Counted from the first letter of the stretch, positions 9,676 through 32,314 are shown. The stretch: 64,000 nt of DNA from Candidatus Magasanikbacteria bacterium RIFOXYC2_FULL_42_28 (GCA_001784435.1 MFQZ01000002.1:12502-76501); one strand, 5' to 3'. A program made the numbers and translations. Notes: generated by a model not told the origin, from the letters alone.

Positions 9676-10653
9676 CTATTTCTTTAAAGTTGTAATCGGC
9701 CGGCTCTGGGTAATGTAAAATTTTCCGCCTTCATATGCCCATTCAATATCGCAGGGGAATTTATAATGTTTTTCAATATTGGCGCTAATTTTCGCCAGTT
9801 CAATAATTTGTTTGCCGGATAATTTTTGCTTCTCACCTTCCGTGCCTAACTCAATCCACTCGTTCGCACTATCATCTTCTTTACCTTTAAATTCACCTTT
9901 TGATTTTTTTACTTTTACTAATTTTTTTGACTGCGCCCCAACATTTATATCAATGATACTCATTTCATTTTTACCGACCACATAACTATCAGGGGTAACT
10001 TGCCCCGACACTATCGCCTCCCCCAGGCCATAACCCGCTTCAATAATCATTTGATCGCGGTCTTCGGTAACCGGATGAACCGTAAAAGCAATTCCGGCAA
10101 TTTCCGATTGTATCATTTTTTGTACGACGACCGCCACGGAAACATAATGGTCAATCAGATTTTTCTCATGGCGATAAAAAATTGCGCGCGGCGTAAACAG
10201 CGACGACCAGCAGGTACGCACGGCTGCCGTAACATTTTTGCGTTCAATGTTTAAATATGTTTCTAACTCCCCCGCCCAACTGGCAATCGCGCTGTCTTCG
10301 GCCGTAGCGCTACTTCGCACCGCGACAAATTTCGCTTCCAATTTATCAAACGCCGTTAAAATTTCTTTTTCTAAATCTTTCGGAAATGGCCGATCATGAA
10401 TAGTATCGCGAATAACATTGCTGGCACGGTCAACCGAATTAGTATCATCAGGGTTAACTTCTTTCAAACGCGCAATAATTTCTTCTTCTAATTGTGTTTC
10501 TTTTAAAAATCGGTCAAACGCCGAAGCCACCACCACAAACCCGGGCGGAACCGGAATTTTTGCGTTCGTCATCTCGCCCAAAGACGCGCCTTTACCGCCG
10601 GCTTCGGGGACGGATTTTTTGGTGAGGTCTTTGAAAAATTTGATGTGGGGCAT
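9676..10653 (-). CDS. stand-alone PPDK_N / PEP-synthase N-terminal ATP-grasp (PEP/pyruvate-binding) domain protein
   Basis: Matches the PEP synthase N-domain throughout (GGKGASLGEM, AVRSSATAEDS, DIEWA...QSRP). There is no swivel or TIM-barrel domain. The start ATG lies 4 nt after the stop of 10658-11794. Confidence 0.85.
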   Translation of the reverse strand: MPHIKFFKDLTKKSVPEAGGKGASLGEMTNAKIPVPPGFVVVASAFDRFLKETQLEEEIIARLKEVNPDDTNSVDRASNVIRDTIHDRPFPKDLEKEILTAFDKLEAKFVAVRSSATAEDSAIASWAGELETYLNIERKNVTAAVRTCWSSLFTPRAIFYRHEKNLIDHYVSVAVVVQKMIQSEIAGIAFTVHPVTEDRDQMIIEAGYGLGEAIVSGQVTPDSYVVGKNEMSIIDINVGAQSKKLVKVKKSKGEFKGKEDDSANEWIELGTEGEKQKLSGKQIIELAKISANIEKHYKFPCDIEWAYEGGKFYITQSRPITTLKK

Positions 10654-10657
10654 AATA

Positions 10658-11794
10658 TTATTTTTTAATTAATGTTACAATTCCTTTATTCGCATCAACT
10701 TCTACCCAATCCCCGGTTTTTAAAATTTCCGTAGCATTTTTTACGCCAATAATCGCTGGAATTTTCAGTTCGCGAGCAACAACAGCCGCGTGCGAAAGGA
10801 CGCCGCCTTCGTTCGCAATAATTGCTTGAAATTTTTTAATAATGGCAACATCGTTAGGGTGCGTCGCACTCACCACTAATATTAAATCATTCCCAGGGAG
10901 TAATGTCAAAAGACGCGCGTCCAGACGATTGATAAATTTTACCGCTCGACCAATCACTTTTCCGCCCCCCCCCACCCCCTTACCGACAAGCCGGCGGTGG
11001 CTTGGGACGTTAACTTTTAAAAATTTCCGATTAATTTTGTCCACTATTTTTTTATTGGAAATAGTTAATTCTTCTTTATTTTCCGATGAAAAGAAAAAAT
11101 ATCCATTTTTTCGGTGACACAATTCTTGCAACTGATTATTATTCAAATTTAAATTGTCGTGTAAATTGACGCGTAATTCACTAATGGTAAAATACCGCAA
11201 GAGATCACCATCATAATTATATCGCCGACCGATTTGTTCGCAACAATTACTAACTATTTTCTCCACGCGCGGATAAATTTTGGCCATCTGCTCGCGCCGC
11301 GCGCTAATTCGCTCGATCAATTTTGCCTGATCCATCCTTTCATTTTTTGGGACACTGAAATACCTCCAAAAAACATTATATACTCCGATACCAGCGAGGT
11401 AACGCGAATAATGTTTAATTATTAAACACAAACATTTAATTGGATCGGCTTTTGCCAATACTTGCGCCTCTTTTTTCCAAATTAAACTATCATAATATAT
11501 TTTATAAGATAAAGCCAAAATTTTTGATAATTTTTGCTCATCATTTTGCTTCAACCAATCCGCAACTGATTTAATAATATAATTTTCATTAAACAAAAAT
11601 TTTAGTTCATTATCGCCACCACAAACCGCGACTGCTCGATAGGAAAAACCCATTATCCGACGCAACTGTCCCAGATATCCTTTTGCCACCGCGCTGGCAA
11701 AAAATAATGATAAATTTCTTTGACTGGCGAGCGCCAAGCCATATTTTTTAAGCTGTTTTGATAAATAATAATAGTCGCACGCGATTGGTTTCAT
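10658..11794 (-). CDS. swivel-domain paralog 1 (short N-domain plus C-terminal PEP-utilizing phosphohistidine domain)
   Basis: C-terminus GKGVGGGGKVIGRA...GGVLSHAAVVARELKIPAIIGV...GDWVEVDANKG is the PEP-utilizers mobile domain with the catalytic His. Confidence 0.7.
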   Translation of the reverse strand: MKPIACDYYYLSKQLKKYGLALASQRNLSLFFASAVAKGYLGQLRRIMGFSYRAVAVCGGDNELKFLFNENYIIKSVADWLKQNDEQKLSKILALSYKIYYDSLIWKKEAQVLAKADPIKCLCLIIKHYSRYLAGIGVYNVFWRYFSVPKNERMDQAKLIERISARREQMAKIYPRVEKIVSNCCEQIGRRYNYDGDLLRYFTISELRVNLHDNLNLNNNQLQELCHRKNGYFFFSSENKEELTISNKKIVDKINRKFLKVNVPSHRRLVGKGVGGGGKVIGRAVKFINRLDARLLTLLPGNDLILVVSATHPNDVAIIKKFQAIIANEGGVLSHAAVVARELKIPAIIGVKNATEILKTGDWVEVDANKGIVTLIKK

Positions 11795-11852
11795 AAATGA
11801 ATCTATTTTGTATACTCTGTTTCCAACCCTTATAATTGCCTATCAATTAATT

Positions 11853-12782
11853 TTATTCCTCTAACCTTTCGCCTCTTTTGAATCTAGAAACACGATTTTC
11901 TCGCGTAGCCATTCGCTCTTCAAACTTATAAAATAATTCTTCCACTTTGGACCAATCTAAACTCAACTTCTTGCCTTCAAATATTGCCTGTCTGTTAGGA
12001 TCAGTAAAAGAGCACTCAACTTTTTCATTACTGCCATTCCGTTTTATTTTAATCTTAAACGCTTCGGCTGGGGCAAAAAACCCGCCAATATCATCAACAT
12101 CCGATAATTTAACTTTTTTACCATTTTCATCCTCCACCTCCAATGTTTCTAATAAAAATGATTCATTAAAAAGACCATGGTTTACAATTGGCATAGCGAC
12201 CTTATTATCTGGGGTTACTCCCTTTTCAGCAAACTGTTTTAATAACCATAGATTAAAGGCGAGCCCTTCGGCTGCTTCCGCGCGAAAAGCCATATCTTTC
12301 AAACCCTCACGCAAGCCAACCTCTTGGGCACCCTGTCTTACTGTGGCACGCTCTTCTGGCGACAGACGACCATATTCGGGATGAGAACCAGCTTTGGCTT
12401 GAATTAAAGGTTTGGCGGCTTTAAGCATCGCTTGACCGTCTGGCCCTAATTCTTTATATGTAATTCCGCTTGCTTGATTAACCTGTCCGCGTTCTTGGCC
12501 AAACCCCTCTTCAATATCACTGGCAGTTTCGGCCGCGCGCCCTTCCATACTACCCACGCCTACTACACTATTATGTTCACCGCGTAAATCTAGACCAAAT
12601 TCCCGCGCTCGCGCTTTACCTTCTGGAGTTAAATCTTCAGTGTCGTTCCATTTAATAACTTCGCTAGTAGCCGGGTCAGTCCACTCACCTTTGCCACCAA
12701 AACGGTTAGAATGACGCATTAAATAAATATCCGTTTCGGTATTGTGTGTTAATTTTTCACTACTTCCTATATGTTCTGACAT
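11853..12782 (-). CDS. histidine phosphatase superfamily (PGAM-like) protein, paralog A
   Basis: LMRHS...LTPEGKARAREFG matches the RHG catalytic motif context. It is paralogous to 28438-29367. Confidence 0.5.
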   Translation of the reverse strand: MSEHIGSSEKLTHNTETDIYLMRHSNRFGGKGEWTDPATSEVIKWNDTEDLTPEGKARAREFGLDLRGEHNSVVGVGSMEGRAAETASDIEEGFGQERGQVNQASGITYKELGPDGQAMLKAAKPLIQAKAGSHPEYGRLSPEERATVRQGAQEVGLREGLKDMAFRAEAAEGLAFNLWLLKQFAEKGVTPDNKVAMPIVNHGLFNESFLLETLEVEDENGKKVKLSDVDDIGGFFAPAEAFKIKIKRNGSNEKVECSFTDPNRQAIFEGKKLSLDWSKVEELFYKFEERMATRENRVSRFKRGERLEE

Positions 12783-12793
12783 ATTTTTATATG

Positions 12794-13396
12794 TTAGTTA
12801 ATTAATAAATTAATTGATTGTTTTAATTTATCCATATTACCATCAAACACGATTCCTTTCATACCAATACTTTCACAATTAATCAGCATATCTTCTCGAT
12901 CATCAACATAAGCCGCTTCCTTTGGGTTGACGTGTGCTTTTGCGCAGGCCCCCACAAACATCTTTATATCAGGTTTGCGTAAATGTTCATAGCCAGATAC
13001 CATTCGCGCGGTTAAAACTTTTTCCAAGCCGGTTTTTTGGACAAAACGCGCGTACCACTCGGCCGGATGATTAGAAATAATGCCAGTGGCCAGTTGTTTA
13101 GAAATATCCTTGATATATTGTATCATGGCGACATTGGGTATTGTCAAATCATCAATTACCCTCACATAACATTCACTGTCAAATGGTATTTGTCCGGCTC
13201 GTTGCGCGCACATATTCAGATATTCTTTTTCGGTTATCAAACCCATGGTAAAATCTTTCCAACCTTGAAAATCATGTACCACGCGATAAAATTCTCCTTC
13301 GGGAATATTTTTCTCAATTTCATATTGTCTAATCCCAGATCTGAATCCTTCTTCACAAATCACTCCACCCATGTCAAAAAAAATGGCTTTAATCAT
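12794..13396 (-). CDS. HAD-like hydrolase (atypical motif I)
   Basis: N-terminus IFFDMGGVI (DxG rather than DxD) and a C-terminal YVDD motif. Confidence 0.5.
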   Translation of the reverse strand: MIKAIFFDMGGVICEEGFRSGIRQYEIEKNIPEGEFYRVVHDFQGWKDFTMGLITEKEYLNMCAQRAGQIPFDSECYVRVIDDLTIPNVAMIQYIKDISKQLATGIISNHPAEWYARFVQKTGLEKVLTARMVSGYEHLRKPDIKMFVGACAKAHVNPKEAAYVDDREDMLINCESIGMKGIVFDGNMDKLKQSINLLIN

Positions 13397-13402
13397 ATTT
13401 TC

Positions 13403-14881
13403 TCACTTAATCTTTCTTACCACCCCCGCGTACGCGTCAACTTCAACCAAATCACCTGTTTTTAAAAACTGAGTAGCAATCTTGGTCCCAATAACACAAG
13501 GGATTCCTAGTTCTCGAGAAATAATAGCGGCGTGGCAAGTAATACCGCCGTCGCTCGTGACAATAGCGGCGGCTTTTTTCATCGCCACTACAAACGATGG
13601 CGTGGTCATCATCGTAACCAATATCTCTCCTTCTCTCATTTCTGAAACTCGAGACGTTTCTAAAATAACTCTAACCAAACCCTGCGCTTTCCCCGACGAT
13701 GCCACTACGCCCTTAATTTCTTTTAAGGTTGGATCAATACGCGTTTCGCGATACTTATCAACTTCCTTGCCCCAAAATGATTTAAAAACATCTGTTCGTG
13801 AATCAAAATAAAAACCATGCATTTCATCTCTTGCCTCCAAGACACTCTCATCTGGTAATTTTCCAGTTTTTAAACCTTTGATGATTTCATCAATGCTAAG
13901 AAATACAACTTTGTCAAAACTCAATCCAAACTTCTCACCAATTGCGCACAATAATGGATAACCAAAATAATCAGTCCTCTGATAAAAGCGAACCAACTCG
14001 GTTTCAACAAAACTACTTTCAGCCAATAAATCTAATATTTTCTTATCGGCCACTTTAATTTTTAAGCGCCTAATCAATGCCTCTCTTTTTTCTCGTGACT
14101 TCTGACGATCAAAGGCCATAGTTCGCAATTTTGCTACTGGGTCACCCTTCTTGATATCATCAACAACTTCAATGTAAATATCCTCGGCAGTAGTATCTTT
14201 ACGAAGTAGAAACATGCTGTTGGCCCAATCGTATTTATTCTTAAATTCAACCAGTTCTTTTTTAACCGCCACCGGTAACTGAGAATATTTTAAATTTTGA
14301 AGTTTTAACTGTTTAATTTTTTTTGCCAAATGCAATATTTCAATTTCACGACGATAAAAAACTGACTCTCTATCAGAAAAAGAAATTTCAATCAATGTCT
14401 GCTTGGCCTCTTCTGGAGGCAGATGTCTTAGAATGTCAAAAAAAATACTTTCTAACAAATTACTTAAGCCACGGACAATATAATTACCGACCAACAAACT
14501 ACATACCGTTCTCCCGCGCAAATCAACATATTTTTTAAAATAATCTACCAAATCTTCGTTGTCGGCATTTTTCAATTTTTTATTTATTTCCACCATTACC
14601 AACGCGTTCTCTTCATCTTTCTGTCTGCGAGCATTATAAAAATCATCGAAGGTTCCTTTTTTTAATATGCGCCTAACAATTGACTTGGTATTTTTTTCAA
14701 AATCACTCTTATCATAATAATGTGCCCAATCCACATATTTATACCTTGATACTTTAAAACCAAAATCCGGGACATCTAACGTGGCTTTTTTAAGACAGAG
14801 ATAACGAATAAAAATATCGCGTGCCAAAAAAGCCCCCTTCCTTCTGGCAATCGCATACCATTTTATTTTTACTCTTGACAT
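13403..14881 (-). CDS. swivel-domain paralog 2
   Basis: C-terminus SDGGITCHAAIISRELGIPCVIGTKIATQFLKTGDLVEVDA. The N-domain carries the shared YDWANS-type motif. Confidence 0.7.
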   Translation of the reverse strand: MSRVKIKWYAIARRKGAFLARDIFIRYLCLKKATLDVPDFGFKVSRYKYVDWAHYYDKSDFEKNTKSIVRRILKKGTFDDFYNARRQKDEENALVMVEINKKLKNADNEDLVDYFKKYVDLRGRTVCSLLVGNYIVRGLSNLLESIFFDILRHLPPEEAKQTLIEISFSDRESVFYRREIEILHLAKKIKQLKLQNLKYSQLPVAVKKELVEFKNKYDWANSMFLLRKDTTAEDIYIEVVDDIKKGDPVAKLRTMAFDRQKSREKREALIRRLKIKVADKKILDLLAESSFVETELVRFYQRTDYFGYPLLCAIGEKFGLSFDKVVFLSIDEIIKGLKTGKLPDESVLEARDEMHGFYFDSRTDVFKSFWGKEVDKYRETRIDPTLKEIKGVVASSGKAQGLVRVILETSRVSEMREGEILVTMMTTPSFVVAMKKAAAIVTSDGGITCHAAIISRELGIPCVIGTKIATQFLKTGDLVEVDAYAGVVRKIK

Positions 14882-14919
14882 ATTATTTTGACTGTCAGTT
14901 AAATTTTAAATATCATCAT

Positions 14920-16413
14920 TTAGGCCCGTCCTAAAATTTTAACTAGGCCGGTGGCCGCATTGACTTCCAATAAATCACCATCGTGAATTATCCGAGTTCC
15001 ATTCATCGTAGCGATAACGCAAGGCACGCCCAGTTCGCGCGACACAATCGCCGCGTGCGAAGATAGCCCACCTTGGTCCGCCACAATCACCACTGCTTTT
15101 TCCATCGCTGGCACAAAATCGGGTGTGGTAAATTGCGCCACAAGAATATCCCCACGCAAAACTTTGTTAATTTCTTTTTTATCCATACAAATTTTCGCTC
15201 GACCAGTAATAATTCCACCAATGCAAGCGACTCGCCCTTGAATTGAATTCACCGCCGTATTGTCAACGGAATATTCTTTTTCCAATTCTTTTATTTTAAC
15301 CGGATCAGTAATCAAGGTAGTTTCAGAATCGCGTGCTAACATCGCGTAATTATGAAAACGAGCGTTCATTTCTTTTTCATCGGGTAGTGGCTTACCGGCC
15401 AAAGCACCAAACATTTCCGGAATTGATACCTCCATTATCCAATCAGGGTTAAAATGCGCGCGCTTGGCAATTTCCGCGTACATAAAACTGGCACCATAAT
15501 CCGCATTGAAAAATGCTTCCACGCGACGATTGCGAACATAGGAGTGAAGCTTGGCTTGGTCAATAATATGTTGGAAGTCAGGACGCGGTTTAATTTTATC
15601 TAATGCCCACGCATATTCATCGGCAACTTTTTGCTCGGAAGCATCATAAATCAAATCATCAATCTTTTTACCTTCACTAACCTGATGTTTCATTTCTTTC
15701 AAGCGATCGACAATATCGTCAAAATCATATGGCTTACTTGTAGCCAAACCACGGTTAATATAAGCAAACCTATCTAAATGCACGTCAATTTTTGCTGTCG
15801 CCTCGGCGGATAAATTATCCAAATCTTCATTGGCTGAAAAAAAATCTTTTGCAATCTGGGCTAATTTCCAACGTTCCTCACTGACTTCGGTCATCTGTTT
15901 TGGGTCAGTAAAAATCAAAACACATTTACGAAAATCGGGATCAGAAGCGGAAATATACTCCAACAACTTTGTTTCAATAGTTGATTCAAAATATTCATCC
16001 AAAGGATATTGCGCATACCAAGGGCCAGCCAAAACACGATACTCTTGCAATAATGGCTCTAAAATGCCAGCTATTTCCTCATTTGTTTTTTCTAACCAAT
16101 CAGTTTTCTTATATACCAAACCTTGTTTATACAAATGTTCATCTTGCTTTAACTCGCGATCGCAATATTTTTCAAACCAACCATCATCGGCTTGAGCATG
16201 CCCGATAATTTCCGCTTCAAATGGATCATATTCTTCTTGACGCCAATACATCATGTGATTTAAATAGGTACGATTAGGCATTGAAGTGCGTATGTCGGCT
16301 TTTTCCATGATTTCCTTCGTAAATGCCGAATTTATCATAAAACGAAGAAAAATGGGGAGTTTCCCCGATGGTTTAATTCTGTATTTTCCCGAACGCATTA
16401 CTGCTCCTGGCAT
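14920..16413 (-). CDS. swivel-domain paralog 3
   Basis: C-terminus DQGGLSSHAAIVSRELGVPCVIAT...GDLLEVNA. Confidence 0.7.
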   Translation of the reverse strand: MPGAVMRSGKYRIKPSGKLPIFLRFMINSAFTKEIMEKADIRTSMPNRTYLNHMMYWRQEEYDPFEAEIIGHAQADDGWFEKYCDRELKQDEHLYKQGLVYKKTDWLEKTNEEIAGILEPLLQEYRVLAGPWYAQYPLDEYFESTIETKLLEYISASDPDFRKCVLIFTDPKQMTEVSEERWKLAQIAKDFFSANEDLDNLSAEATAKIDVHLDRFAYINRGLATSKPYDFDDIVDRLKEMKHQVSEGKKIDDLIYDASEQKVADEYAWALDKIKPRPDFQHIIDQAKLHSYVRNRRVEAFFNADYGASFMYAEIAKRAHFNPDWIMEVSIPEMFGALAGKPLPDEKEMNARFHNYAMLARDSETTLITDPVKIKELEKEYSVDNTAVNSIQGRVACIGGIITGRAKICMDKKEINKVLRGDILVAQFTTPDFVPAMEKAVVIVADQGGLSSHAAIVSRELGVPCVIATMNGTRIIHDGDLLEVNAATGLVKILGRA

Positions 16414-16530
16414 ATAATTTTAGGTTAAATGTTGATTATATATTACACCTATATTTATATTACACCTTTTTTAAAATTCTGACAAATCAATTAACACGGT
16501 GGCCTGATAAATCCAAGTTATAAAAAATAA

Positions 16531-17760
16531 TCAAGAATAAGTATAGCCAGGGACAATTTGAATATCTTGAATTTCTGTTTCTTTAAGGCTATTCATTAAC
16601 GAACCGAGACATCCTGACGTTTTCGTCGGTAATTCTGTTACTATGTCAAAATCAACACCTGGATCATCACGCCAATCAAACCCGCCGACAAATTTAATAT
16701 CTTGTAAACCAAATGATTTTAGTAAGCCAGTAAATTCGTTAAAATACGTATACGGAAGCCTTGATGTGGCTTCGGCTGATATCACAAAGTAAGTATCTCC
16801 TTGCCTACCAACGCGCTTCACCCTTTCGATGGTTTGTGCCATTTTTGACTCTTCTTCAACAATGACGAGCGGCCCGCGATGTTCACTAAAAACGCGGTCA
16901 AACTTTGCTATGAGCTCCGAGCGTTCGGCTGGGGTCTTAGCATTTTTTTTACCAAATTGATCATAGTAATCCAAAAAATATGGATGTACTGCTCCCAAAA
17001 TATGCTCCGGTTCTTTTTTTTCAGTTGATTCCTGTTGTTGATTATGTTCCAATTTTAAAATTGCGCCAGGCACTTCCACCAAACCCATTGATTCATATTT
17101 TCGAATAAGCTCGCGAAACTTTTCATTTTGACGTACCGCAGTCTTAGTATCAGGATTAAGAACAGTTGTCTCGCTTGGAATACTATTCGCTAATTCAATT
17201 AAAAATTTATATTCAGTTGGTGACAATAGAACTGCATCTTCAAAAAATCTGGAAAAATGATCGGGGTCACGGTCAATGCCAAAAAGTTTTGGCACAAAAT
17301 TTTTTCCAAAATGCATGTAGATAACGAGGTCATTCGAAATACGAAACTGGCCGGGTAAATTTGGATCACTTGAAACTTTGCCGATCTCTATTATGGCTGG
17401 CACGCCCCGATCATTTCCTTTGTCTTCAAGGACAACCGCAAACGACCCTTCCAAACTATCACGATCCAATCTTGAATAATTATGAGATTTTTTTACAATT
17501 TCTACAAACGTTTTACTGATACGGGGATCTAAATTTTCCGGCTTGATAAAGCGGGTAAATAATGAACAACGACCAACATTATTTCCATCGATATCGCGAT
17601 CTTTAAGCGAACTTGAGCAGTAAACGTCGGAATATTCTCTAGTTCTATCAAATGTCCAGCCCGGATCAGGCACCGTTGTGATGGTGCCTTTTTGATCTGC
17701 CGGCGCAATATCAACCAAACTTTTTTCATCTGTTGGATGTCCAATATCACGTCTGCGCAT
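16531..17760 (-). CDS. hypothetical protein embedded in the swivel cluster
   Basis: 409-aa ORF with no motif I can recognise. Confidence 0.3.
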   Translation of the reverse strand: MRRRDIGHPTDEKSLVDIAPADQKGTITTVPDPGWTFDRTREYSDVYCSSSLKDRDIDGNNVGRCSLFTRFIKPENLDPRISKTFVEIVKKSHNYSRLDRDSLEGSFAVVLEDKGNDRGVPAIIEIGKVSSDPNLPGQFRISNDLVIYMHFGKNFVPKLFGIDRDPDHFSRFFEDAVLLSPTEYKFLIELANSIPSETTVLNPDTKTAVRQNEKFRELIRKYESMGLVEVPGAILKLEHNQQQESTEKKEPEHILGAVHPYFLDYYDQFGKKNAKTPAERSELIAKFDRVFSEHRGPLVIVEEESKMAQTIERVKRVGRQGDTYFVISAEATSRLPYTYFNEFTGLLKSFGLQDIKFVGGFDWRDDPGVDFDIVTELPTKTSGCLGSLMNSLKETEIQDIQIVPGYTYS

Positions 17761-19243: not shown

Positions 19244-19860
19244 ACTTTTTCGATTTTTAAAATATACATTAACCCGCCGATTTCGCAATACCAATCTTTC
19301 GGCCGTGCCCCTCCCTCGTCATTTAAAATATGATAAAACCGATAACTAAAATCAGGATTTTTTGCTTTCACGGTTTCGGCCGCGTTTTTGAAAAATACCC
19401 CATCAGCGAATTTGTCATCAGTATACACAACTGTATCATAACCCTCTAATACTTTTTTAGAAAGATAATCAACTAACATTGCTTCAGTTTTAACATTAGT
19501 CTCGCCATAATCAAAAGTGGAGTTAATTTTTTGAAAAAAAGAACGAATGTTAAAACCGACTTTCGGATTCAAATACTCCGCGCGCCAATCCATGCACTCC
19601 GCCAAACCCGTGCTGAAAGCTTCGTTATTTTTAGTCAAACTTAAAACTTCCTTAAAACCTTTGGCAGTTTGTAAGTTAAAATAATTTCCTAACTTGTAAA
19701 CTTCTTCATAGCCTTCTTCAAATTTTCTGGGCTCTGTCGCGTTATCAACTCCTTTTAATTTAATATATTCCTCGTAACTATCAAAATGAGTTAATTCTTT
19801 ATTCCACTTTTCAGGAAAAAGGGTGCCTGCCAAATCCCAAAGGTACAAAATTTTATTCAT
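19240..19860 (-). CDS. hypothetical protein, possibly a degenerate HAD-like fold
   Basis: The N-terminal LYLWDLAGTLF resembles the DxxGTL haloacid-dehalogenase motif I. The match is weak. Confidence 0.3.
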   Translation of the reverse strand: MNKILYLWDLAGTLFPEKWNKELTHFDSYEEYIKLKGVDNATEPRKFEEGYEEVYKLGNYFNLQTAKGFKEVLSLTKNNEAFSTGLAECMDWRAEYLNPKVGFNIRSFFQKINSTFDYGETNVKTEAMLVDYLSKKVLEGYDTVVYTDDKFADGVFFKNAAETVKAKNPDFSYRFYHILNDEGGARPKDWYCEIGGLMYILKIEKV

Positions 19861-24418: not shown

Positions 24419-25459
24419 TTAAAAATAGTTTTTAACCGCAAATTCAAATTGTTGAATAAATAATTCTTTTAAATATGCCAAACTATTTTGCTCATAAAAT
24501 AATAACATGGCTTTTTTGTATTCAGTTTCATCTAAACTGCGCAGAGACATCGGACACCAATCATTGGCCAACAGCAAAGCATTCGCGACAATACGACTTG
24601 TGCGTTTATTGCCATCAACAAACGGCTGGGTGTAGGCAATGAGAGCCAGAGCAAACAGCGCTTTTTCTGGCGGACTTTTAGTTTTATTTATTACTTCAAC
24701 TATTTTTGCTACCGCGTCTTCGATTTGGAAGCGATTATCAATCGGCTGATAGTTGGTACCAATAATCCGCACTAAAATACTGCGCCAGTTATCAGGCACG
24801 TCCAAATCTTTTATAAGCAACGAATGAACGTCGCGTATTTTGATTGGCTTTAATAATTTAAATTTGGTCGGATCGGACAAAATATAATCAAAAGCGACTT
24901 TGTGATTTAAAATCATTATCGCTTCTTTTTTATTATGCCCACTCGCTTCACGTGCTTCTTTAATTAAAGTTTCCGTTTCAAAAAGCGAATAGGTATTACC
25001 TTCCAAACGCGATGATTTCCAGCTAATTTCAATTGTCAGCCGTTCTAATTCTTTTTTTAAGGCGATTGGACTTAAGCGCGTGCGTTTAGTTTGATATTCA
25101 TTGTTTATCTTTTCCAAACGCGTCAATTCCGATGAGGTAAATACATTTTCAAACCAATTAAAAATTTCCCAATTAAATTTTTCTTTAATATCGCGTTGAT
25201 CTTGTGATTTTTTAAAATACACATCTGGAGAATAATAATATAACAATGGATTACTAATTTTGGGCAAATAGACCACTGCTCTCGCCTTCCCCTTTTTAAT
25301 AATCAAATTAGCGATTAACAACGCTTCCAAATCACGTAAAATCGTTGGTTTGGAAATTGCATCAAATTTAGTGGCGATTTCAGCTAAAATTGAACTTTGG
25401 GGCGCCTCGCCATTTTTTTGAAGATACTCTAAAATAGCGTTTTGTCGCTGTGTTAACAT
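24419..25459 (-). CDS. Fic/Doc family protein with N-terminal wHTH. The motif is Doc-type (NKR) with His replaced by Gln
   Basis: The Fido motif reads QPFVDGNKRTSR where the canonical form is HPFx(D/E)GN(G/K)R. An HTH-like N-terminus is present. Confidence 0.55.
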   Translation of the reverse strand: MLTQRQNAILEYLQKNGEAPQSSILAEIATKFDAISKPTILRDLEALLIANLIIKKGKARAVVYLPKISNPLLYYYSPDVYFKKSQDQRDIKEKFNWEIFNWFENVFTSSELTRLEKINNEYQTKRTRLSPIALKKELERLTIEISWKSSRLEGNTYSLFETETLIKEAREASGHNKKEAIMILNHKVAFDYILSDPTKFKLLKPIKIRDVHSLLIKDLDVPDNWRSILVRIIGTNYQPIDNRFQIEDAVAKIVEVINKTKSPPEKALFALALIAYTQPFVDGNKRTSRIVANALLLANDWCPMSLRSLDETEYKKAMLLFYEQNSLAYLKELFIQQFEFAVKNYF

Positions 25460-25508: not shown

Positions 25509-26927
25509 TCATTTTGATACGATTTTTACAATCCCTTTTAAAGCATCAACTTCCACTTTATCCCCATCCTTGAAAATTTTTGTAGCAGTTTTAGTATTAA
25601 CAATACACGGAATACCAAGTTCACGCGAAACAATCGCGGCGTGACATGTAAGCCCGCCAAAATCAGTCACAATCGCCAACGCCTTTTTCATTGCAAAAAT
25701 ATATTCTGGACTGGTCATTGGTGCTAACAGAATTTCGCCAACTTTAAATTCACCTACTTGATTTGGGTCAAGTAATATTCGGGCGTGACCAATAACTTTT
25801 CCACCTTTTCCTTTACTCACAACTAACCCCTTTACTTCTGTCTGGCTAACAATTTTTTCTTCACCATATAATTGCCAAAATGATTTTGTTTCATTTTCGT
25901 CTAAAATCTTACAATTTTTATAAAAATTTACCCCAAAACCACTGCGACGATTATCCAATATGTTGTGCAAATCTTTCCCATCGATAATCTCTCCTATCTC
26001 CCAATACCAAGTGTTTAACAAATCATCAACTGGATAGTCAAACCGGCGCGCTACCTCAACAAGAAGCCGATCTTGGTAGTGCAAAGCCATAAATATATAC
26101 TTTTTACGCTCATCTTGCACAGTAATCCCCTCGCTAATTGCCTGCCCAATATTAATAATTGATTTTGATAAATTATACTGTTTTATTACCGCAACTTTAT
26201 TTCTTCTTGTTTCCGCCAATCTCTGACGCGTCTCTAACTTAATATTAGATGTGATCTCTTTTTTGCGTTCAACAAAAAAACTCAACGGTAACACTTGTGT
26301 TCCAGCATAACTATTTTTTAACCAATAAAATTTTTGTTGATGCTTTTTTAAATTTTCACTCGTCGCTAGAGCCATTTCTTCTTCTTGATAAAACGATGGT
26401 TTTTCCGGTGTTGTTAATATTTGAACAACTTGTTTTAAGTTCGTCTTATCCTTAATATATTTAGACAACTCCTTTTCTATATATTTATCCGCGCCATAAT
26501 TTGCCAATTCCGGCACTGTCCCGTAAATCCAAAAATTAATATAATCATGACTATAATCCGCCCAAAACTGATTAAATTGCTTATCGGTCAATTTTGCCAA
26601 ATCAATATTATCCAAATAGCGATGCCAACGCTCTAACTTAACAACCTCTTCTTTCCAGCGTTTATAAATATTATTTCGCGATTTTGGTGGCAACCAATAC
26701 TTTACAAATACTTTTTGCCCAGCACTGCGCAGAGTGGCGTATTCATTCAACCACAACATCTGACGATTGCGGAACAAGAATAAACTTCGCGACCAATTCA
26801 GCCCCAAAAACTTTTGACAAAAATACTTATAATTTACCTCGGTAAAAAATGAAGTATAAAAAAATCTGCCCGGAATCGGCCCCCAGCGAAAAATTTCTTT
26901 TTTAGGATTAAGTGGTAATTTGTTCAT
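25509..26927 (-). CDS. swivel-domain paralog 8
   Basis: C-terminus DFGGLTCHAAIVSRELGIPCIVNT...GDKVEVDA. The N-domain carries QQKFYWLKNSY. Confidence 0.7.
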   Translation of the reverse strand: MNKLPLNPKKEIFRWGPIPGRFFYTSFFTEVNYKYFCQKFLGLNWSRSLFLFRNRQMLWLNEYATLRSAGQKVFVKYWLPPKSRNNIYKRWKEEVVKLERWHRYLDNIDLAKLTDKQFNQFWADYSHDYINFWIYGTVPELANYGADKYIEKELSKYIKDKTNLKQVVQILTTPEKPSFYQEEEMALATSENLKKHQQKFYWLKNSYAGTQVLPLSFFVERKKEITSNIKLETRQRLAETRRNKVAVIKQYNLSKSIINIGQAISEGITVQDERKKYIFMALHYQDRLLVEVARRFDYPVDDLLNTWYWEIGEIIDGKDLHNILDNRRSGFGVNFYKNCKILDENETKSFWQLYGEEKIVSQTEVKGLVVSKGKGGKVIGHARILLDPNQVGEFKVGEILLAPMTSPEYIFAMKKALAIVTDFGGLTCHAAIVSRELGIPCIVNTKTATKIFKDGDKVEVDALKGIVKIVSK

Positions 26928-26932
26928 AATTG

Positions 26933-28432
26933 TTATTTTACTATCACTACGCCGTGATCAGCGTTGACTAACACCCAATCACCGTCTTTTAATTTCTTGG
27001 TTGCTGCTTGGGTGCCGATAATACAAGGAATTTTTAATTCTCGGCTGACTACGGCCGCGTGCGAGGTGATTCCGCCCTCGTCCGTCACTATGGCCACGGC
27101 GTTTTTCATAAGAGGTACAAATTCCGGGCGAGTGCTAACAGTCACCAGCACATCGCCTTGCGACATTTTTGAAAATTCACTCATTTTATTAATTACCACC
27201 ACTCTTCCCTCCGCTTTACCAGTACAAGCAATCACACCTCTAATTTCCGTGACAGCTGAATCAATTGACTTTTCAATAATTTTTTCAAGTTTGCTACTAA
27301 GTGCTGGATTAAGGTGATACTCGCTTTTACCGTTCCAAGCCAACATGTAACTCTTCTTAAACAAGGTCTCATATTTTTTGGTGAGCGACCGCTTAACCGG
27401 CAAACTCTTAATAGCCAGCGGATCGCATTTCTTAATATCTTCCCAATTCAAATTACTCCGACGCGCCATTTCTGTGCCCACGAGCTCTAAATAATGATTT
27501 AAGCGTTGCACTTGCACCTTGCGCTCATCGCGCCAAAAAGAAATTACTCCGAAAAAATGAAACATTTGCTTGCCCCATTTGGAAAGATGGTAATACTTGA
27601 AAATTTTAGTTTTTTTATCTTTAATCTCTTTGCTAAAATTTACTAGCATGTCTAATTCTTTGTGAGTATCTCTCGGACCAGATAAAATTTGTTTGATATT
27701 TTCTACTATTTCAAATGCGGTTAACACCTGTGTATGCCCCCAACTGTTGTAAATCCAAAAATAAGATGATTGATAATTCTCAATAGCTTTTTCTATTTCT
27801 GGGTACAATTTTAAACGATGTAAATTTTGCGGTGATGAAATATACAAAAAAGTGTTAAGTGCGCCGGGAGTTTTTTTGATATCTTCGACAATTTTTAACA
27901 AATCACGCTCACTACGCTGGTGACTGATTAATTTTTCTTGCGACATCAAATCCGCTATCTCGGCGTCTTCTAAAACTACATTCTCTTCAATTAATTCCTT
28001 CTTTACCAATCCTTCCGCGTCTAAATCATAAATATCAATATAAAATAAATTCCACATGAAAAAATTTGCCGAAGCCAATCGGTGATTAATTCGTAAGAGC
28101 GCTGAGTCACTAAATTTTTTAACTCCACTTTTATTTATCTCTTCAAAAATCTTTTCGCTTGCGACCCGTACTTTCTGGTACCAATCGTTGTAAAGATTAT
28201 CAATAAAACCAAAGTCTTCACGCTCTTTAAGTAAATATTTTTCCGCCAATTGTCGCATTAAGTCTTTACTAAAATAAGCCTTGGCTAAATCATTACGACA
28301 TAACCAAAAAATATTACTATCTTGATCGTGAAACCAATACAAACAACCACAACAAGGCCGATAAATAAAATAAGGCGCACTCTCGGTTTCCTGACGATAC
28401 CAGTCAGTGGTTCTAATTTTATCTAAATCCAT
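26933..28432 (-). CDS. swivel-domain paralog 9
   Basis: C-terminus DEGGITSHAAVVSRELKIPCIIGT...GDWVLVNA. The N-domain carries QSSYFWIYNSW. Confidence 0.7.
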   Translation of the reverse strand: MDLDKIRTTDWYRQETESAPYFIYRPCCGCLYWFHDQDSNIFWLCRNDLAKAYFSKDLMRQLAEKYLLKEREDFGFIDNLYNDWYQKVRVASEKIFEEINKSGVKKFSDSALLRINHRLASANFFMWNLFYIDIYDLDAEGLVKKELIEENVVLEDAEIADLMSQEKLISHQRSERDLLKIVEDIKKTPGALNTFLYISSPQNLHRLKLYPEIEKAIENYQSSYFWIYNSWGHTQVLTAFEIVENIKQILSGPRDTHKELDMLVNFSKEIKDKKTKIFKYYHLSKWGKQMFHFFGVISFWRDERKVQVQRLNHYLELVGTEMARRSNLNWEDIKKCDPLAIKSLPVKRSLTKKYETLFKKSYMLAWNGKSEYHLNPALSSKLEKIIEKSIDSAVTEIRGVIACTGKAEGRVVVINKMSEFSKMSQGDVLVTVSTRPEFVPLMKNAVAIVTDEGGITSHAAVVSRELKIPCIIGTQAATKKLKDGDWVLVNADHGVVIVK

Positions 28433-28437
28433 ATGGT

Positions 28438-29367
28438 CTATTTGTCACTCGTCTGAAATTTCTTATTAAACTCATCGCGGTCGGCCACTAATTCCTCTAA
28501 AACTACTTTAGGGGCGACCAGATCTATATCCTCATCACCCAGCTTAACTTTAATGTGAATTTCTTGTTGCGCAGGACCTGTGTTCTCAATCTCTACCCGA
28601 AAACCTTGCAATTCTTTAAACATCGGCCCAATTTTTGCCATCACTTCATTACGCCGATCCACCCCTTGTAATTTTTCAACCAACCTCAGAAGAAATGATT
28701 CATTTATAGTTGCGTGCGTTCCCAAATATCTTTCCATTTGGCTTTTTAATGGCTCATATTTTTCAGGCTTACGACCGACTAAGCGATTAAAATTTCCACC
28801 CATCTCTACATAGCGCAAAATTAAATCAGCAACATTACCAGCCACTCGGGTAATACTGGTCATTTGGGGATCGTTATCGGCTATCGCCACCTGATCACTA
28901 TTCTCCACCATAAATTTAGTTACCCAACCCTCGGCATAGGCCTTATCTAATAAACCACCCTTATCAGTGAAAAAATCCAATCGTGAATCAGGAATAATTT
29001 TTTTGCCATATTTAAGCTGTTTGGCAATTTCCGCTTCAATTTCTTCCATACTCATTCCCGTGGTATCGGGCTGGCCGGAAAGCATTACGTGCGTAGCCGA
29101 CTCCTGCGCCCGTTTACGCGGACTGGCAACGACCGCGGAAACTTCTAATTGTGGGGCAAGTCCCAGCCCTTTTTCTCTAGCGGCTGTTCTGGCAGACGGA
29201 ATTAAACGAACATCTTCGTCTGTCTGTCCGTCTGCGGTTTTTTCCTTTTTACCATGACGCATAAATTCCAACACGATTCTGGAGCGCGTTTTGCCCTCAA
29301 ACTCACTAATGCCACCATTCTTTCTCTCTGAACCAGGCATCTCAAAAGGATTCCTTGAGCTACACAT
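28438..29367 (-). CDS. histidine phosphatase superfamily (PGAM-like) protein, paralog B
   Basis: FMRHG...LIPSARTAAREKGLGL. Same length (309 aa) as paralog A, with a shared C-terminal region. Confidence 0.5.
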   Translation of the reverse strand: MCSSRNPFEMPGSERKNGGISEFEGKTRSRIVLEFMRHGKKEKTADGQTDEDVRLIPSARTAAREKGLGLAPQLEVSAVVASPRKRAQESATHVMLSGQPDTTGMSMEEIEAEIAKQLKYGKKIIPDSRLDFFTDKGGLLDKAYAEGWVTKFMVENSDQVAIADNDPQMTSITRVAGNVADLILRYVEMGGNFNRLVGRKPEKYEPLKSQMERYLGTHATINESFLLRLVEKLQGVDRRNEVMAKIGPMFKELQGFRVEIENTGPAQQEIHIKVKLGDEDIDLVAPKVVLEELVADRDEFNKKFQTSDK

Positions 29368-29385
29368 ATATTTTATGGTTAAAAA

Positions 29386-30837
29386 TTAAACCTTTTTAAT
29401 TACTTTTATTATACCACTATTAGCATCAACTTCAACCATGTCACCATCTTTCAAAATTGAAGTTGCGACTTGAGTGCCAATTACGCATGGAATACCAAGT
29501 TCTCGCGCTACTATCGCGGCGTGGCATGTTATACCACCCTCATCAGTTATAATAGCGACCGCCTTCTTCATAAGCGGTAAATACTCCGGTCTGGTCATTG
29601 GCGCCACTAAAATATCACCTGATTTCATTTTATTAAAATCTGCAGGAATTTTAATAACTTTAACAGTGCCAACGATAATACCCCGACTGGCCGATTGACC
29701 CTTTAATTCCTTAAATTGATTGTTAAATTGTTGTTCAAGTATTTTTAAAAACTCAACACATTCCCTACCGGTTAATACCACAGTTTTGTTATTGCGATCA
29801 CAATAATATATACTTTTTTTCGCGCGATTGGCTAATTCTTTTTTATAAGATTGGCCAAAATTCAAACGAGTAGAAAATATTTCTTCCGGCACAGCAAACA
29901 AAACATGTTTGTAAGGCGTACCGGCACGACGAGCAAATTCCTGCGCAAATAAATAATAATAACCAACCCCAATCATCGCTTCCCTTTTTCGTTCATCACG
30001 CCAATAACCCATACGGCGAAAAAAATAAAAAATATTATCCACCTCTTTGGGTAAACGCAATTCTTTCAACAAATTTCGACGATTCTCATTTTTATTTGAA
30101 TGTTCTAATTTAATCTTTTTAATTTTTCGTGTAATTTCTGACAGATGAATTTTTAACAATTTTTCAAAATTTTTAGTAAAATAATCTAATTTCAAAGTAG
30201 TCGCATGCGCCCAATCACGTTGAAGCCAAAAATATTTCTGTTGATGAAATTGTAGTAATGTGCCTCGCTTATTTACTGGAGACATCCTAACGTTTAACAA
30301 ACCTAATTCTTCTTGCTGTGTTAACGTCATCTCCTTCGGGGTCGTAATTAAAACCAGATCATCTGGTTTAATAGTTAAATTATATTTATTTATAACATCA
30401 TTAATTATTTTATCCCCCCATGGGTCAAACGCTTCAATATGAACACTAATAACCCACGACTGGTAATCAGCATTAACAAATTTCTTATACAAATTCAATA
30501 AATGCGACAAACTAAGTTTTGATAAATCTCTCAATTCTATATACTTAACAAGTGAATTTCTTTCATTTATGCAATTTTCCCAAGTAGTTATTTTAGAATC
30601 TATATAACGGCGATCGCGACTTTGTTTGACGATATCCGCATTTCCAGCTTTCAGCTCAGCTAAACTGTTAAAATACCCACGATGCATAACCCCATCTTGA
30701 TGGACTATAAGGTTTTTTTTGCCCCACAATTTCATACCAGAATAAAATGGAACAATAAAATAAAATGGCACGCCTGCTCCACCTTGCCGATACCAATTCA
30801 CTGTTTTAATATAATTTAAATCAATACCCGAAAGCAT
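29386..30837 (-). CDS. swivel-domain paralog 10
   Basis: C-terminus DEGGITCHAAIVARELGIPCVIGT...GDMVEVDA. The N-domain carries QQKYFWLQRDW. Confidence 0.7.
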   Translation of the reverse strand: MLSGIDLNYIKTVNWYRQGGAGVPFYFIVPFYSGMKLWGKKNLIVHQDGVMHRGYFNSLAELKAGNADIVKQSRDRRYIDSKITTWENCINERNSLVKYIELRDLSKLSLSHLLNLYKKFVNADYQSWVISVHIEAFDPWGDKIINDVINKYNLTIKPDDLVLITTPKEMTLTQQEELGLLNVRMSPVNKRGTLLQFHQQKYFWLQRDWAHATTLKLDYFTKNFEKLLKIHLSEITRKIKKIKLEHSNKNENRRNLLKELRLPKEVDNIFYFFRRMGYWRDERKREAMIGVGYYYLFAQEFARRAGTPYKHVLFAVPEEIFSTRLNFGQSYKKELANRAKKSIYYCDRNNKTVVLTGRECVEFLKILEQQFNNQFKELKGQSASRGIIVGTVKVIKIPADFNKMKSGDILVAPMTRPEYLPLMKKAVAIITDEGGITCHAAIVARELGIPCVIGTQVATSILKDGDMVEVDANSGIIKVIKKV

Positions 30838-30838
30838 A

Positions 30839-32314
30839 CTATTTCCTTATAATTCGAACTGAATTATGGTTGGCGTTAACTTCTACCAAATCACCATCTT
30901 TTAATAATTTAGTGGCAAATTTTGTGCCCACCACACAGGGAATTCCGAGCTCGCGCGAAACAATCGCGGCGTGACACATTACCCCGCCTTCGTCTGTTAT
31001 AATCGCACCGGCACGACGCATTGCCGGCACATAATCAGGACTCGTCATCGAGGCTACTAAAATATCACCCTGTTCAACTTTATTTACTTCATTAGCGCTA
31101 TGAAGCACTTTCACTTTACCACTGCAAAATCCCGCCGAGGCAATTATCCCATCGAGTTTGCCGGTACTAACTTCTTCCGGCAATAAATATTCTGCCATGC
31201 GAGCATCAGGATCGTTTAATTTAACATCGATATTCTTGCCTTGCCACCAAACATAACAATGCTTTTGGCGCTGTTCTAAAATTTCTTTTAAAATAATTTT
31301 GCCTGTTTTCAAAGCTAAAAATACTTCTTGCGGTAAATAATACTGCACTAACTCCCTTTTTATTCCTAAACGTCGACCAGTTTCAGCTAATATCCTCTCC
31401 GCCCAAAAATGTACTTGGGTAAATATTTCTTTTTTATAATCCATCAAATATCCACCTTGGCGCATAATTTTAAAATATGCGCGATACTCTGGTGAAATTT
31501 TTAATTCTTTTTCTAAACCCCGCTGGCGGATTGATAAATTTTTAAAATATTTTTCGCTCGATTTTATTTTTTCTGCCAATTTAGGATTTTTTATCATTAA
31601 ACGTAAAACTTCGGTAAAATATTTTTCATTCCAGATATACATTCCATAATCAAATGGTACCCAAAAATATTGACGGGTGTGATTTTTTATTACTAATTTT
31701 TTATTTTTTATTTTGTTATTACGAATTTTTAATGCCAACTTCGTCAAATCATCTTCTTCGCGTTTTACAAATGATTTTTCTGCTGGCGATACTAATATGT
31801 TATACATCGCCGAGTAATCTTGTCGATCGCCGTTTATCAATTTTTTCAGATAGTCAAATAATAACGGAGAAAGTTTTTCTTCTAATAATATTACTAACGG
31901 TTCGCTACAGATATAAGCGGCTTCATACATCTGTAAATATTGTTTCCAAAATTGAGATAATTCTGCATTAGAAAATTTTGACAAATCTTTCGTACTGACA
32001 TTTTTAACAAAAGTTAATAAACTATTAGACAACTTTGTGAATAATTTACTATTTTTTTTAATTAAATTTGGATCACTTTTTAGCTGATAAATTAATTCTT
32101 CAGCTGAACTTTTAATTTGACTACTTGAGGCGTACCAATACATAACATTATCCCGGTACACACATCTCGTCTCGCCAAAACTTTTCCCGCGCAATACGTT
32201 TTTCAAACCATAAGTAAAAACATGCCCGATGACATAAACATTGGGAAATATAAATACATTTTCTTTTCTTTGTTTAAAGATATAATCTCTTAACATACTT
32301 AAATATAATATCAA
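30839..32314 (-). CDS. swivel-domain paralog 11
   Basis: C-terminus DEGGVMCHAAIVSRELGIPCVVGT...GDLVEVNA. The N-domain carries TRQYFWVPFDY. Confidence 0.7.
   Translation of the reverse strand: MILYLSMLRDYIFKQRKENVFIFPNVYVIGHVFTYGLKNVLRGKSFGETRCVYRDNVMYWYASSSQIKSSAEELIYQLKSDPNLIKKNSKLFTKLSNSLLTFVKNVSTKDLSKFSNAELSQFWKQYLQMYEAAYICSEPLVILLEEKLSPLLFDYLKKLINGDRQDYSAMYNILVSPAEKSFVKREEDDLTKLALKIRNNKIKNKKLVIKNHTRQYFWVPFDYGMYIWNEKYFTEVLRLMIKNPKLAEKIKSSEKYFKNLSIRQRGLEKELKISPEYRAYFKIMRQGGYLMDYKKEIFTQVHFWAERILAETGRRLGIKRELVQYYLPQEVFLALKTGKIILKEILEQRQKHCYVWWQGKNIDVKLNDPDARMAEYLLPEEVSTGKLDGIIASAGFCSGKVKVLHSANEVNKVEQGDILVASMTSPDYVPAMRRAGAIITDEGGVMCHAAIVSRELGIPCVVGTKFATKLLKDGDLVEVNANHNSVRIIRK

Follow-up and report, generated by a model that had tools for sequence, protein, structure and literature searches.

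A probable battery of two-component dikinases, with one ATP-grasp gene and eleven diverged swivel paralogs, on the chromosome of a Candidatus Magasanikbacteria bacterium

HpeHI, CreHI and phenylphosphate synthase PpsAB are characterized two-component homologs of rifampin phosphotransferase (RPH), in which a stand-alone ATP-grasp protein is paired with a partner whose N-terminal domain is of the RPH substrate-binding type and whose C-terminal domain is a phosphohistidine swivel (PMC12167813). The H581Q variant of HpeH is inactive (PMC12167813). The same split, with adjacent component genes and a catalytic histidine in a GGxxxH motif, is present in a 64-kb stretch of DNA from Candidatus Magasanikbacteria bacterium RIFOXYC2_FULL_42_28 (64,000 nucleotides, GCA_001784435.1 MFQZ01000002.1:12502-76501; hereafter the window), where one ATP-grasp gene lies in a row with 11 genes for swivel proteins. 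An earlier note on this DNA had stated that no described system has such an architecture, a claim that the three enzymes above contradict. We consider it probable that the region encodes a battery of two-component RPH-type dikinases on the chromosome of this groundwater organism, a member of Candidatus Magasanikbacteria, a lineage of the Candidate Phyla Radiation (CPR, or Patescibacteria). The chemistry, the charging in trans by one ATP-grasp protein and the small-molecule nature of the substrates we infer by homology to RPH, PpsAB and HpeHI.

The array occupies positions 9676-32314 of the window on the minus strand, where 18 tightly packed genes are separated by gaps or overlaps of 1-5 nt, ATGA overlaps among them. 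About 22.6 kb is thus devoted to one enzyme family, or an estimated ~2% of a genome that we take, from general CPR genome sizes, to be ~1 Mb. The window encodes 11 swivel proteins of 378-510 amino acids (aa), all from intact open reading frames (ORFs). The ATP-grasp gene and these paralogs, W1 to W11, are as follows, with related proteins given as P numbers and related loci as L numbers.

9676-10653, minus strand: stand-alone PPDK_N ATP-grasp protein, 325 aa (PF01326, E 4.3e-99, residues 16-324)
10658-11794, minus strand: W1, short form of 378 aa (PF00391, E 6e-24; histidine motif GGVLSHAA)
13403-14881, minus strand: W2, 492 aa (PF00391, E 1.2e-25; nearest relative P0088, 63% identity)
14920-16413, minus strand: W3, 497 aa (PF00391, E 1.3e-20; homologs 73-77% identical in other assemblies)
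17795-19294, minus strand: W4, 499 aa as a TTG-initiated ORF (PF00391, E 9e-25)
19853-21364, minus strand: W5, 503 aa (PF00391, E 3.3e-22; nearest relatives 44-45% identical; full set of conserved charged residues)
21366-22853, minus strand: W6, 495 aa, the protein used for structure modeling
22856-24388, minus strand: W7, 510 aa (PF00391, E 1.3e-27; 49% identity to L008 15875-17425; full charged set)
25509-26927, minus strand: W8, 472 aa (PF00391, E 2.7e-25; 52-55% identity to members in L005, L025 and L028; full charged set)
26933-28432, minus strand: W9, 499 aa (PF00391, E 3.7e-25; 52% identity to P0097)
29386-30837, minus strand: W10, 483 aa (PF00391, E 6.2e-28; 45-46% identity to P0105 and P0179; full charged set)
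30839-32314, minus strand: W11, 491 aa, the first gene of the array (PF00391, E 1.5e-26; 62-63% identity to L008 7105-8559 and P0094)

The C-terminal ~105 residues of all 11 paralogs match PF00391, the PEP-utilizers phosphohistidine swivel domain (E 1e-20 to 2.5e-28), and the phospho-accepting histidine of GGxx(C/S)HAA is invariant in every one. The ATP-grasp gene, last in the row, starts 4 nt past the W1 stop codon and encodes a PPDK_N domain only, the protein's C-terminus (...QSRPITTLKK) coinciding with the domain end. It is the sole ATP-grasp match across the window. Its best PDB match is phosphoenolpyruvate (PEP) synthase (8a8e, 1.8e-70), followed by the RPH ATP-grasp structures 5hv6 and 5fbs (~1e-55) and by 9goj, a 387-aa stand-alone chain (1.8e-47). 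We predict that this protein is an ATP-binding "charger" subunit, the counterpart of HpeI, PpsB and RPH residues 1-314. A PEP/pyruvate-binding TIM barrel (PEP-utilizers_C) was matched neither by Pfam in the array proteins nor by phmmer anywhere in the window with the C-terminal domain of PEP synthase as query. The PF00391 and PF01326 matches thus confirm the earlier note's count of eleven swivel paralogs and one stand-alone PPDK_N protein, with no TIM barrel.

The array layout given in that note also stands, but some gene details required revision. W1 is a short form, in which the swivel is preceded by ~265 aa of truncated and diverged N-terminal domain, and the Fic/Doc protein embedded in the array is degenerate, as described below. 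If W4 starts at its TTG, it shares 55 nt with the HAD-fold gene upstream. The probable true start is an ATG in frame at 19243, which would give a protein of 482 aa and makes an ATGA overlap with the stop of the HAD-fold gene; this overlap suggests translational coupling. Short family forms (~340-430 aa), with an intact swivel and an N-terminal domain that is truncated or unrecognizable, recur in L007, L008, L010, L026, L028 and L029; these forms, W1 included, are apparently not orthologs of one another.

For the ~390-aa N-terminal domains (N-domains), Pfam and NCBIfam searches gave no match even with the threshold at E≤10, and all 11 domains align with one another despite their divergence. As modeled for W6, the N-domain has the fold of the RPH rifampin-binding domain, so that the relationship proposed in the earlier note is borne out at the level of predicted fold. 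The C-terminal half of the domain holds a near-invariant cluster of charged residues. Among 170 family members (W6 numbering), R348 is conserved in 97%, R319 in 95%, E315 and E334 in 94%, R298 in 93% and H216 in 89%, with D296 and K299 conserved in ~75%. Such a pattern would be expected of a shared phosphotransfer site. Eight of the 11 window paralogs keep the charged set: W4 retains all of it but H216, W9 has E334 and R348 unmatched in the alignment, and W11 has the full set with K at position 298. W3 carries an N-R-V variant of the D-R-K motif that ~22-24% of the family share. W1 and W2 have diverged, the former reading E/M/A/Q at D296/R298/K299/E315 and the latter T/L/V/A at the family's conserved charged positions. 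In a glocal full-length profile alignment, R666-E667-x-x-K670 of RPH, residues whose roles have been described together with the RPH mechanism (PMC4844700), land with high posterior probability on the W-R-D-E-R-K motif of the family, a correspondence that we regard as suggestive.

Each window paralog is 42-77% identical over its full length to proteins from other genomes, compared with 28-35% to its neighbors in the array. Thus, the paralogs represent old, separately maintained subfamilies rather than a recent tandem burst. Such ancient, conserved subfamilies suggest distinct conserved functions, most simply distinct substrates, and each N-domain probably selects a different small molecule. 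W3 belongs to the most strongly conserved subfamily, and W6 is the ortholog of the lone copy found at this locus in several Magasanikbacteria. Mean pairwise identity among the paralogs is 16.9% for the N-domain versus 51.5% for the swivel (range 37-66%), a roughly threefold difference in conservation that a docking partner common to all, namely one charger, would predict.

The array might also be viewed as decaying debris, made up of truncated PEP synthase remnants or pseudogenized duplicates; W1 is short, and both W1 and W2 lack most conserved N-domain residues. However, all 11 ORFs are intact with the catalytic histidine, and the genes are tightly packed within a reduced genome. Orthologs at 42-77% identity and the thousands of family representatives described next point the same way. 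Moreover, both sequence comparison and fold indicate that the N-domains are not remnants of an ATP-grasp or TIM barrel, and a search for ATP-grasp domains finds only 9676-10653. Decay is thereby effectively refuted, and the N-domains are not diverged PPDK_N or PEP synthase remnants, an outcome that the earlier note had named as one that would refute its interpretation.

Our exhaustive search for the family returned 5,304 cluster representatives with a threshold of E≤1e-3, of which 3,764 remain at E≤1e-10. The named protein matches are all from Patescibacteria, and the genome matches are from CPR bacteria or DPANN archaea, barring a few metagenome-assembled genomes (MAGs) with doubtful labels. 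Related loci were gathered with W6 alone as query, which biases the sample toward relatives of W6. The resulting 28 distinct loci (window counted) sample Magasanikbacteria and other Patescibacteria as well as DPANN archaea of the Woesearchaeota and Nanoarchaeia. In 16 of the 28, a single ATP-grasp, stand-alone or fused, lies within or adjoining the array, usually as the last gene, and none of the 28 has more; most loci that lack one end at a contig or flank boundary near the array. An array and an ATP-grasp gene thus co-occur in many relatives. In Magasanikbacteria the order of the slot is NUDIX, TrwB-like gene, array, PPDK_N, zf_Tbcl_2, and the number of modules in the slot varies from one (L003, L009, L012, L018) through six (L008) and 11 (the window) to at least 11 (L010).

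Loci L008, L012, L020, L022, L024, L026 and L028 come from MAGs whose titles include "uncultured Gammaproteobacteria bacterium" and "uncultured Methanosarcinales archaeon". These taxonomic labels look unreliable, since L008 has the full Magasanikbacteria synteny (NUDIX, TrwB, array, ATP-grasp, zf). Downstream of the array in L010 (Magasanikbacteria GW2011_GWC2_37_14), positions 18990-20120 form a GC-rich stretch with long ORFs in multiple frames on both strands, set in AT-rich surroundings; this could be an RNA gene or foreign DNA.

Fusions connect the components covalently. With G for the ATP-grasp, N for the N-domain and H for the swivel histidine domain, L030 encodes G-N-H in a single 793-aa ORF that is colinear with RPH. 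Among 219 family proteins collected for a fusion census, we found 16 N-H-N-H, three N-H-N-H-N-H, two G-N-H-N-H-N-H, one G-N-H-N-H and one N-H-N-H-G. A G-(N-H)3 protein, P0079 (L031), is an uninterrupted 1,839-aa ORF under translation table 11, lies in archaeal context and occurs in two assemblies. Gene-calling artefacts were considered for the multi-module fusions and rejected: the junctions show linkers, no start-like Met and normal Trp, and the ORF of P0079 is unbroken. In P0079, one ATP-grasp shares a chain with three modules, which directly supports the idea of one charger for several acceptors. Together with the conserved gene order, the fusions in L030 and L031 support the link between a lone ATP-grasp and many swivels that the earlier note had drawn. 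Another multi-module protein, P0112 (2,648 aa), contains 5% Trp, with W at family Gly positions ("NWD" for DGD, "DADEW" for DAxxG), and looks like a protein from an organism that reads UGA as Gly (code 25) translated with code 4.

The lone ATP-grasp might nonetheless not be the common charger, if the swivels have another donor, such as a full PEP synthase or pyruvate phosphate dikinase (PPDK) encoded elsewhere, or if it serves the adjacent paralog only. In favor of this view, L014, L020 and L010 have no ATP-grasp in range, in L024 the lone paralog lies 5 kb from a gene for a full PEP synthase, and both the swivel and the ATP-grasp domains are nearest to those of PEP synthase. Conversely, no array has more than one ATP-grasp, most apparent absences are contig truncations, the G-(N-H)3 and G-(N-H)2 fusions join one ATP-grasp to several modules, and the swivels of the 11 paralogs are similarly conserved (37-66% identity), as would be expected for a shared docking partner. 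On balance we judge a different donor to be unlikely.

The mechanism that we propose would begin with ATP binding by the 325-aa protein encoded at 9676-10653. The swivel histidine of an N-H protein would then attack the beta-phosphate, with release of AMP and Pi. Next, the phosphohistidine swivel would dock back on its own ~390-aa N-domain, where the Arg/Glu/Lys/His cluster would pass the phosphate to a substrate bound there, for a net reaction of ATP + X-OH + H2O -> X-O-P + AMP + Pi. One ATP-grasp would serve all 11 N-H proteins, and a common charger would explain how the swivels have remained ~52% identical while the N-domains drifted to ~17%.

The biological role is more conjectural. As a guess, we favor a system that traps scavenged hydroxylated metabolites by high-affinity phosphorylation or activates them, and RPH-like detoxification of host or environmental compounds appears about equally likely. 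HpeHI has been described as a scavenging system with a submicromolar Michaelis constant (PMC12167813). An episymbiont that must capture or activate scarce compounds with high affinity would, by analogy, be well served by irreversible dikinase chemistry. More broadly, though with confidence that falls a little short of even, we propose a "one charger, many acceptors" scheme for the ultra-small symbionts of CPR and DPANN. A single ATP-grasp would load up to 11 or more substrate-specific swivel proteins, sometimes within one polyprotein, and the resulting modular, irreversible, high-affinity phosphorylation would capture host metabolites or neutralize host compounds, acting together with HAD and His_Phos phosphatases.

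Such phosphatase-like genes are among six that are interleaved with the paralogs.

11853-12782, minus strand: protein A, 309 aa, of the His_Phos_1 (PGAM/histidine-phosphatase) superfamily (PF00300, E 7.6e-6)
12794-13396, minus strand: HAD-superfamily hydrolase, 200 aa (PF00702, E 7e-11; PF13419, E 3e-8)
16531-17760, minus strand: near-orphan protein, 409 aa, no Pfam, NCBIfam or PADLOC match
19240-19860, minus strand: HAD-fold protein, 206 aa, no Pfam match, member of a conserved Patescibacteria family
24419-25459, minus strand: Fic/Doc-family protein (PF02661, E 2.2e-11; motif QPFVDGNKRTSR)
28438-29367, minus strand: protein B, 309 aa, His_Phos_1 (PF00300, E 9.8e-6; RHG motif)

Protein A scores 26.2 bits against PF00300 (cut-off 21.7), with an RHS motif at residue 23 and a second histidine in NHGxxNESF, and has homologs within the arrays of L023 and L001. 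Homologs of protein B lie within the arrays of L008, L029 and L005; a PDB sequence search with protein B gave no match. The HAD hydrolase has homologs in L023, L015 and L026 and is fused as N-H-HAD in L022, P0049 and P0211, although the P0049 fusion could be a simple stop-codon loss. The HAD-fold protein is likewise a recurrent array accessory. HAD-fold and His_Phos genes thus recur inside arrays of unrelated lineages (L001, L005, L008, L015, L023, L026, L029), and this recurrence, together with the fusion of HAD to N-H, makes it likely that the system includes a dephosphorylation, a phosphomutase step or a reset of the phosphohistidine. Most likely, these partners would act on the phosphorylated products, by dephosphorylating or rearranging them, or would return the phosphohistidine to its free state.

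The proposal that the embedded genes fit a phosphoryl-transfer theme remains plausible for the His_Phos and HAD genes. It fails for the Fic/Doc gene, which was ruled out as part of such a theme because the catalytic histidine is missing: in its motif, QPFVDGNKRTSR, the GNKR part is Doc-like and the histidine is replaced by Gln. Judging from this motif, the protein may be a pseudo-enzyme, and the gene is probably a passenger or loosely associated. Fic genes near the DPANN arrays L015 and L019 keep the canonical HPFxDGNGR. The 409-aa protein has four homologs in 5.8 billion proteins, one of which, P0333, lies outside any array, and shows a faint MYG1/DHH-like match (E 0.21). As a near-orphan with no array linkage elsewhere, it was rejected as a functional partner and is probably a passenger. 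A defense function was also considered and rejected: PADLOC had no match for the ATP-grasp, the paralogs, the HAD-fold protein or the His_Phos protein, and matched only the Fic and TrwB-like proteins, with generic models.

The recurrent phosphatases bear on two further interpretations. The phosphohistidine phosphatase SixA is a member of the His_Phos_1 superfamily, and the swivel domain is common to Enzyme I of the phosphotransferase system (PTS). The swivel proteins might accordingly act on proteins, in a regulatory phosphorelay like that of PTS Enzyme I and HPr, with the His_Phos proteins that recur in arrays resetting the swivel histidine as SixA does. A PPS-like protein has been reported to act as a regulator in Haloferax (PMC10948481), which may be counted for this possibility. 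However, the N-domain resembles the small-molecule-binding domain of RPH and no protein-docking module, there are no HPr-like or response-regulator partners in the window, and eleven conserved subfamilies with a phosphotransfer-like charged cluster suit enzymes better than regulators. We therefore consider a phosphorelay improbable. Alternatively, the paralogs could resemble PigC, RedH and HapC and be ligases or condensing enzymes that work by phosphoryl activation. The phosphohistidine would then turn a carbonyl or hydroxyl into a leaving group to drive bond formation, no stable phospho-product would be released, and the array would form a biosynthetic or modification toolkit. PigC and RedH share the superfamily, their NCBIfam models match the ATP-grasp (E 7e-70) and the paralog swivels (once, in W10, residues 312-479), and condensing and phosphorylating chemistry are indistinguishable from sequence. 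Nonetheless, enzymes of the PigC type consist of one chain and are encoded in biosynthetic clusters, whereas the arrays have no biosynthetic genes with them, and the recurrent phosphatase-family partners suggest real phospho-intermediates. There is thus only a slight chance, in our view, that the family consists of ligases.

Several observations weigh against the assignment of the array to RPH-type dikinases served by one charger. By sequence, both the ATP-grasp and the swivel lie nearer to PEP synthase than to either RPH or HpeI, which marks a separate lineage whose chemistry could differ from the one predicted by homology. An N-domain-only profile (A2) found zero matches among PDB sequences, and N-domain-only profiles scored 1.1-6.6 bits against RPH residues 648-747, with 6.6 bits for one built from 170 sequences, within the range of shuffled controls. 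Since these scores are no better than the controls, we do not claim sequence-level homology between the N-domain and RPH. The active-site correspondence to RPH accordingly depends on an alignment in which the swivel provides the anchor. PRK08296, the NCBIfam models for PpsA-like proteins, recognize the swivel region of the paralogs alone (residues ~371-494), at 84-117 bits against cut-offs of 578-730. W1 and W2 are without most of the conserved charged cluster. Neither L014 nor L020 has an ATP-grasp in the 5.5-10 kb that flank the array on each side, and in L010 the 3.7 kb downstream contain none. Finally, the presence of kinases and phosphatases in one operon is not self-explanatory.

Beyond the array lie ordinary chromosomal genes on either side (FtsEX, Mur ligase, DivIC, PPIases, DnaB, RecR, Clp ATPase, HIT, NUDIX and three tRNAs), and the region is chromosomal rather than a mobile element. 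The features adjoining the array are these.

8491-9048, minus strand: MntP-type manganese efflux pump, just downstream of the ATP-grasp gene
9178-9148, minus strand: intrinsic-terminator-like hairpin (14-bp stem, then a T-run) downstream of the zf_Tbcl_2 gene
9195-9551, minus strand: zf_Tbcl_2 treble-clef zinc-finger protein with two repeats, adjoining the ATP-grasp gene downstream
9667-9639, minus strand: strong promoter-like site upstream of the zf_Tbcl_2 gene
32363-34288, minus strand: TrwB/VirD4-like coupling-protein ATPase (PF10412, E 1.7e-12), immediately upstream of the array
34421-34393, minus strand: promoter-like site in the NUDIX/TrwB intergenic region, GTGATA-17-TATAAT with extended -10 TG (10/12 consensus)

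A minus-strand scan found no convincing promoter or terminator inside the array, and the hairpin at 9178-9148, the sole strong minus-strand terminator in 9000-35200, probably ends the transcript or transcripts of the region. Given the 1-5 nt gaps, the ATGA overlaps and the lack of convincing internal signals, we infer one or few long transcription units. The site at 34421-34393 is a candidate promoter for TrwB and the array, by consensus match only. The zf_Tbcl_2 gene is a conserved neighbor of the ATP-grasp in L003, L008, L009 and L012. Farther downstream, 6481-7053 on the minus strand encodes a 190-aa Translin-family protein (PF01997, E 1.4e-16), an unusual find in a CPR bacterium since the family is mainly eukaryotic and archaeal.

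TrwB-like orthologs lie directly upstream of the array in L003, L008, L009, L010, L012 and L018. In L001 (13607-21503), from another Patescibacteria genome, five modules, a His_Phos gene and the ATP-grasp are followed by PrgI, TraC-like, VirB4-like ATPase and pilin genes of a type IV secretion system (T4SS). The proximity of arrays to T4SS genes in L001, and to TrwB elsewhere, may be a coincidence or a real association. The swivel proteins could accordingly be cargo or effectors of a neighboring type IV secretion or coupling system, delivered to a host cell, as the TrwB/VirD4-like gene upstream in the window and six related loci and the T4SS-like genes that follow the L001 array might suggest. 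Type IV coupling protein homologs are, however, abundant in Patescibacteria, at about two per genome and mostly away from virB4 (PMC12102498). DPANN arrays lack T4SS-type neighbors, and the TrwB adjacency is conserved synteny within the single lineage Magasanikbacteria. An effector role is therefore very improbable.

In GenBank the array proteins (locus tags A3J93_04205 onward) are named "hypothetical protein", and UniRef names include "Phosphoenolpyruvate synthase", "PEP-utilising enzyme mobile domain-containing protein" and "Phosphoglycerate mutase". The names "phosphoenolpyruvate synthase" and PPDK are misleading, given the absent TIM barrel and the RPH-type domain order. A PEP synthase/PPDK label (elsewhere "PEP-utilizing enzyme" or "hypothetical") can falsely imply gluconeogenesis in metabolic reconstructions. 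The very small genomes of CPR and DPANN organisms encode few recognizable metabolic enzymes, yet they hold a family with thousands of members and no functional annotation. Identification as RPH-type two-component dikinases supplies a testable biochemical hypothesis for many of these unexplained genes. If some substrates are antibiotics, the arrays would be an unexplored reservoir of resistance; if the substrates are metabolites of the host, the arrays would be relevant to nutrient acquisition by episymbionts. Should one charger indeed serve many modules, organisms with reduced genomes would possess a modular, expandable phosphorylation battery, and a natural system would be at hand for asking how a single ATP-loading subunit serves many diverged acceptors.

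Although this type of two-component enzyme is already known, the one-charger/many-acceptor array and the large CPR/DPANN family appear to be undescribed. The same appears true of the distinct N-domain family, the variation from one to at least 11 modules per slot with at most one ATP-grasp, the three-module fusion and the recurrent phosphatase-like genes. In a literature survey of incomplete coverage, we found no publication on this family or its arrays in CPR or DPANN.

The array differs from each known system in its own way. PigC, RedH and HapC belong to the same superfamily, with ATP-grasp, substrate domain and swivel, but are single-chain condensing enzymes of biosynthetic clusters, and array proteins score 76-82 bits against a model cut-off of 1300. 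PEP synthase provides the best sequence match of the swivel (8a8e, 2.6e-50) and shares the motif GGxT(C/S)HAAIVSRELGIPC. In PEP synthase and PPDK, however, the swivel sits between the ATP-grasp and the barrel, whereas in the array it is C-terminal to an RPH-type domain, and the PEP synthase models NF005057 and TIGR01418 remain below their cut-offs on array proteins. RPH is a single 867-aa chain (PDB 5hv1, 5fbs; PMC4844700), whereas the array ATP-grasp is a separate gene. The RPH model NF041857 gives 271 bits for the ATP-grasp and 63-68 bits for the paralogs (cut-off 999), and the RPH insertion YGMRCAGEID after the KY motif is missing from the array family.

HpeHI, CreHI and PpsAB remain the closest in organization. 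By the PRK08296 full-length test, the paralogs fall outside the PpsA/CreH/HpeH clade, whose members share ~45% identity. The array N-domain is ~390 aa of another sequence family, compared with PRK08296 full-length models of ~600 aa, and the array ATP-grasp and swivel resemble PEP synthase, with most copies keeping the Thr of T-(C/S)-H. The partners of the array are HAD and His_Phos proteins in place of carboxylases, and its hosts are CPR and DPANN organisms, with no aromatic-catabolism genes nearby. The array would thus extend the recently defined two-component dikinase subfamily well past aromatic catabolism. Most distinctively, HpeHI, CreHI and PpsAB each have one acceptor, whereas in the array one ATP-grasp accompanies up to at least 11.

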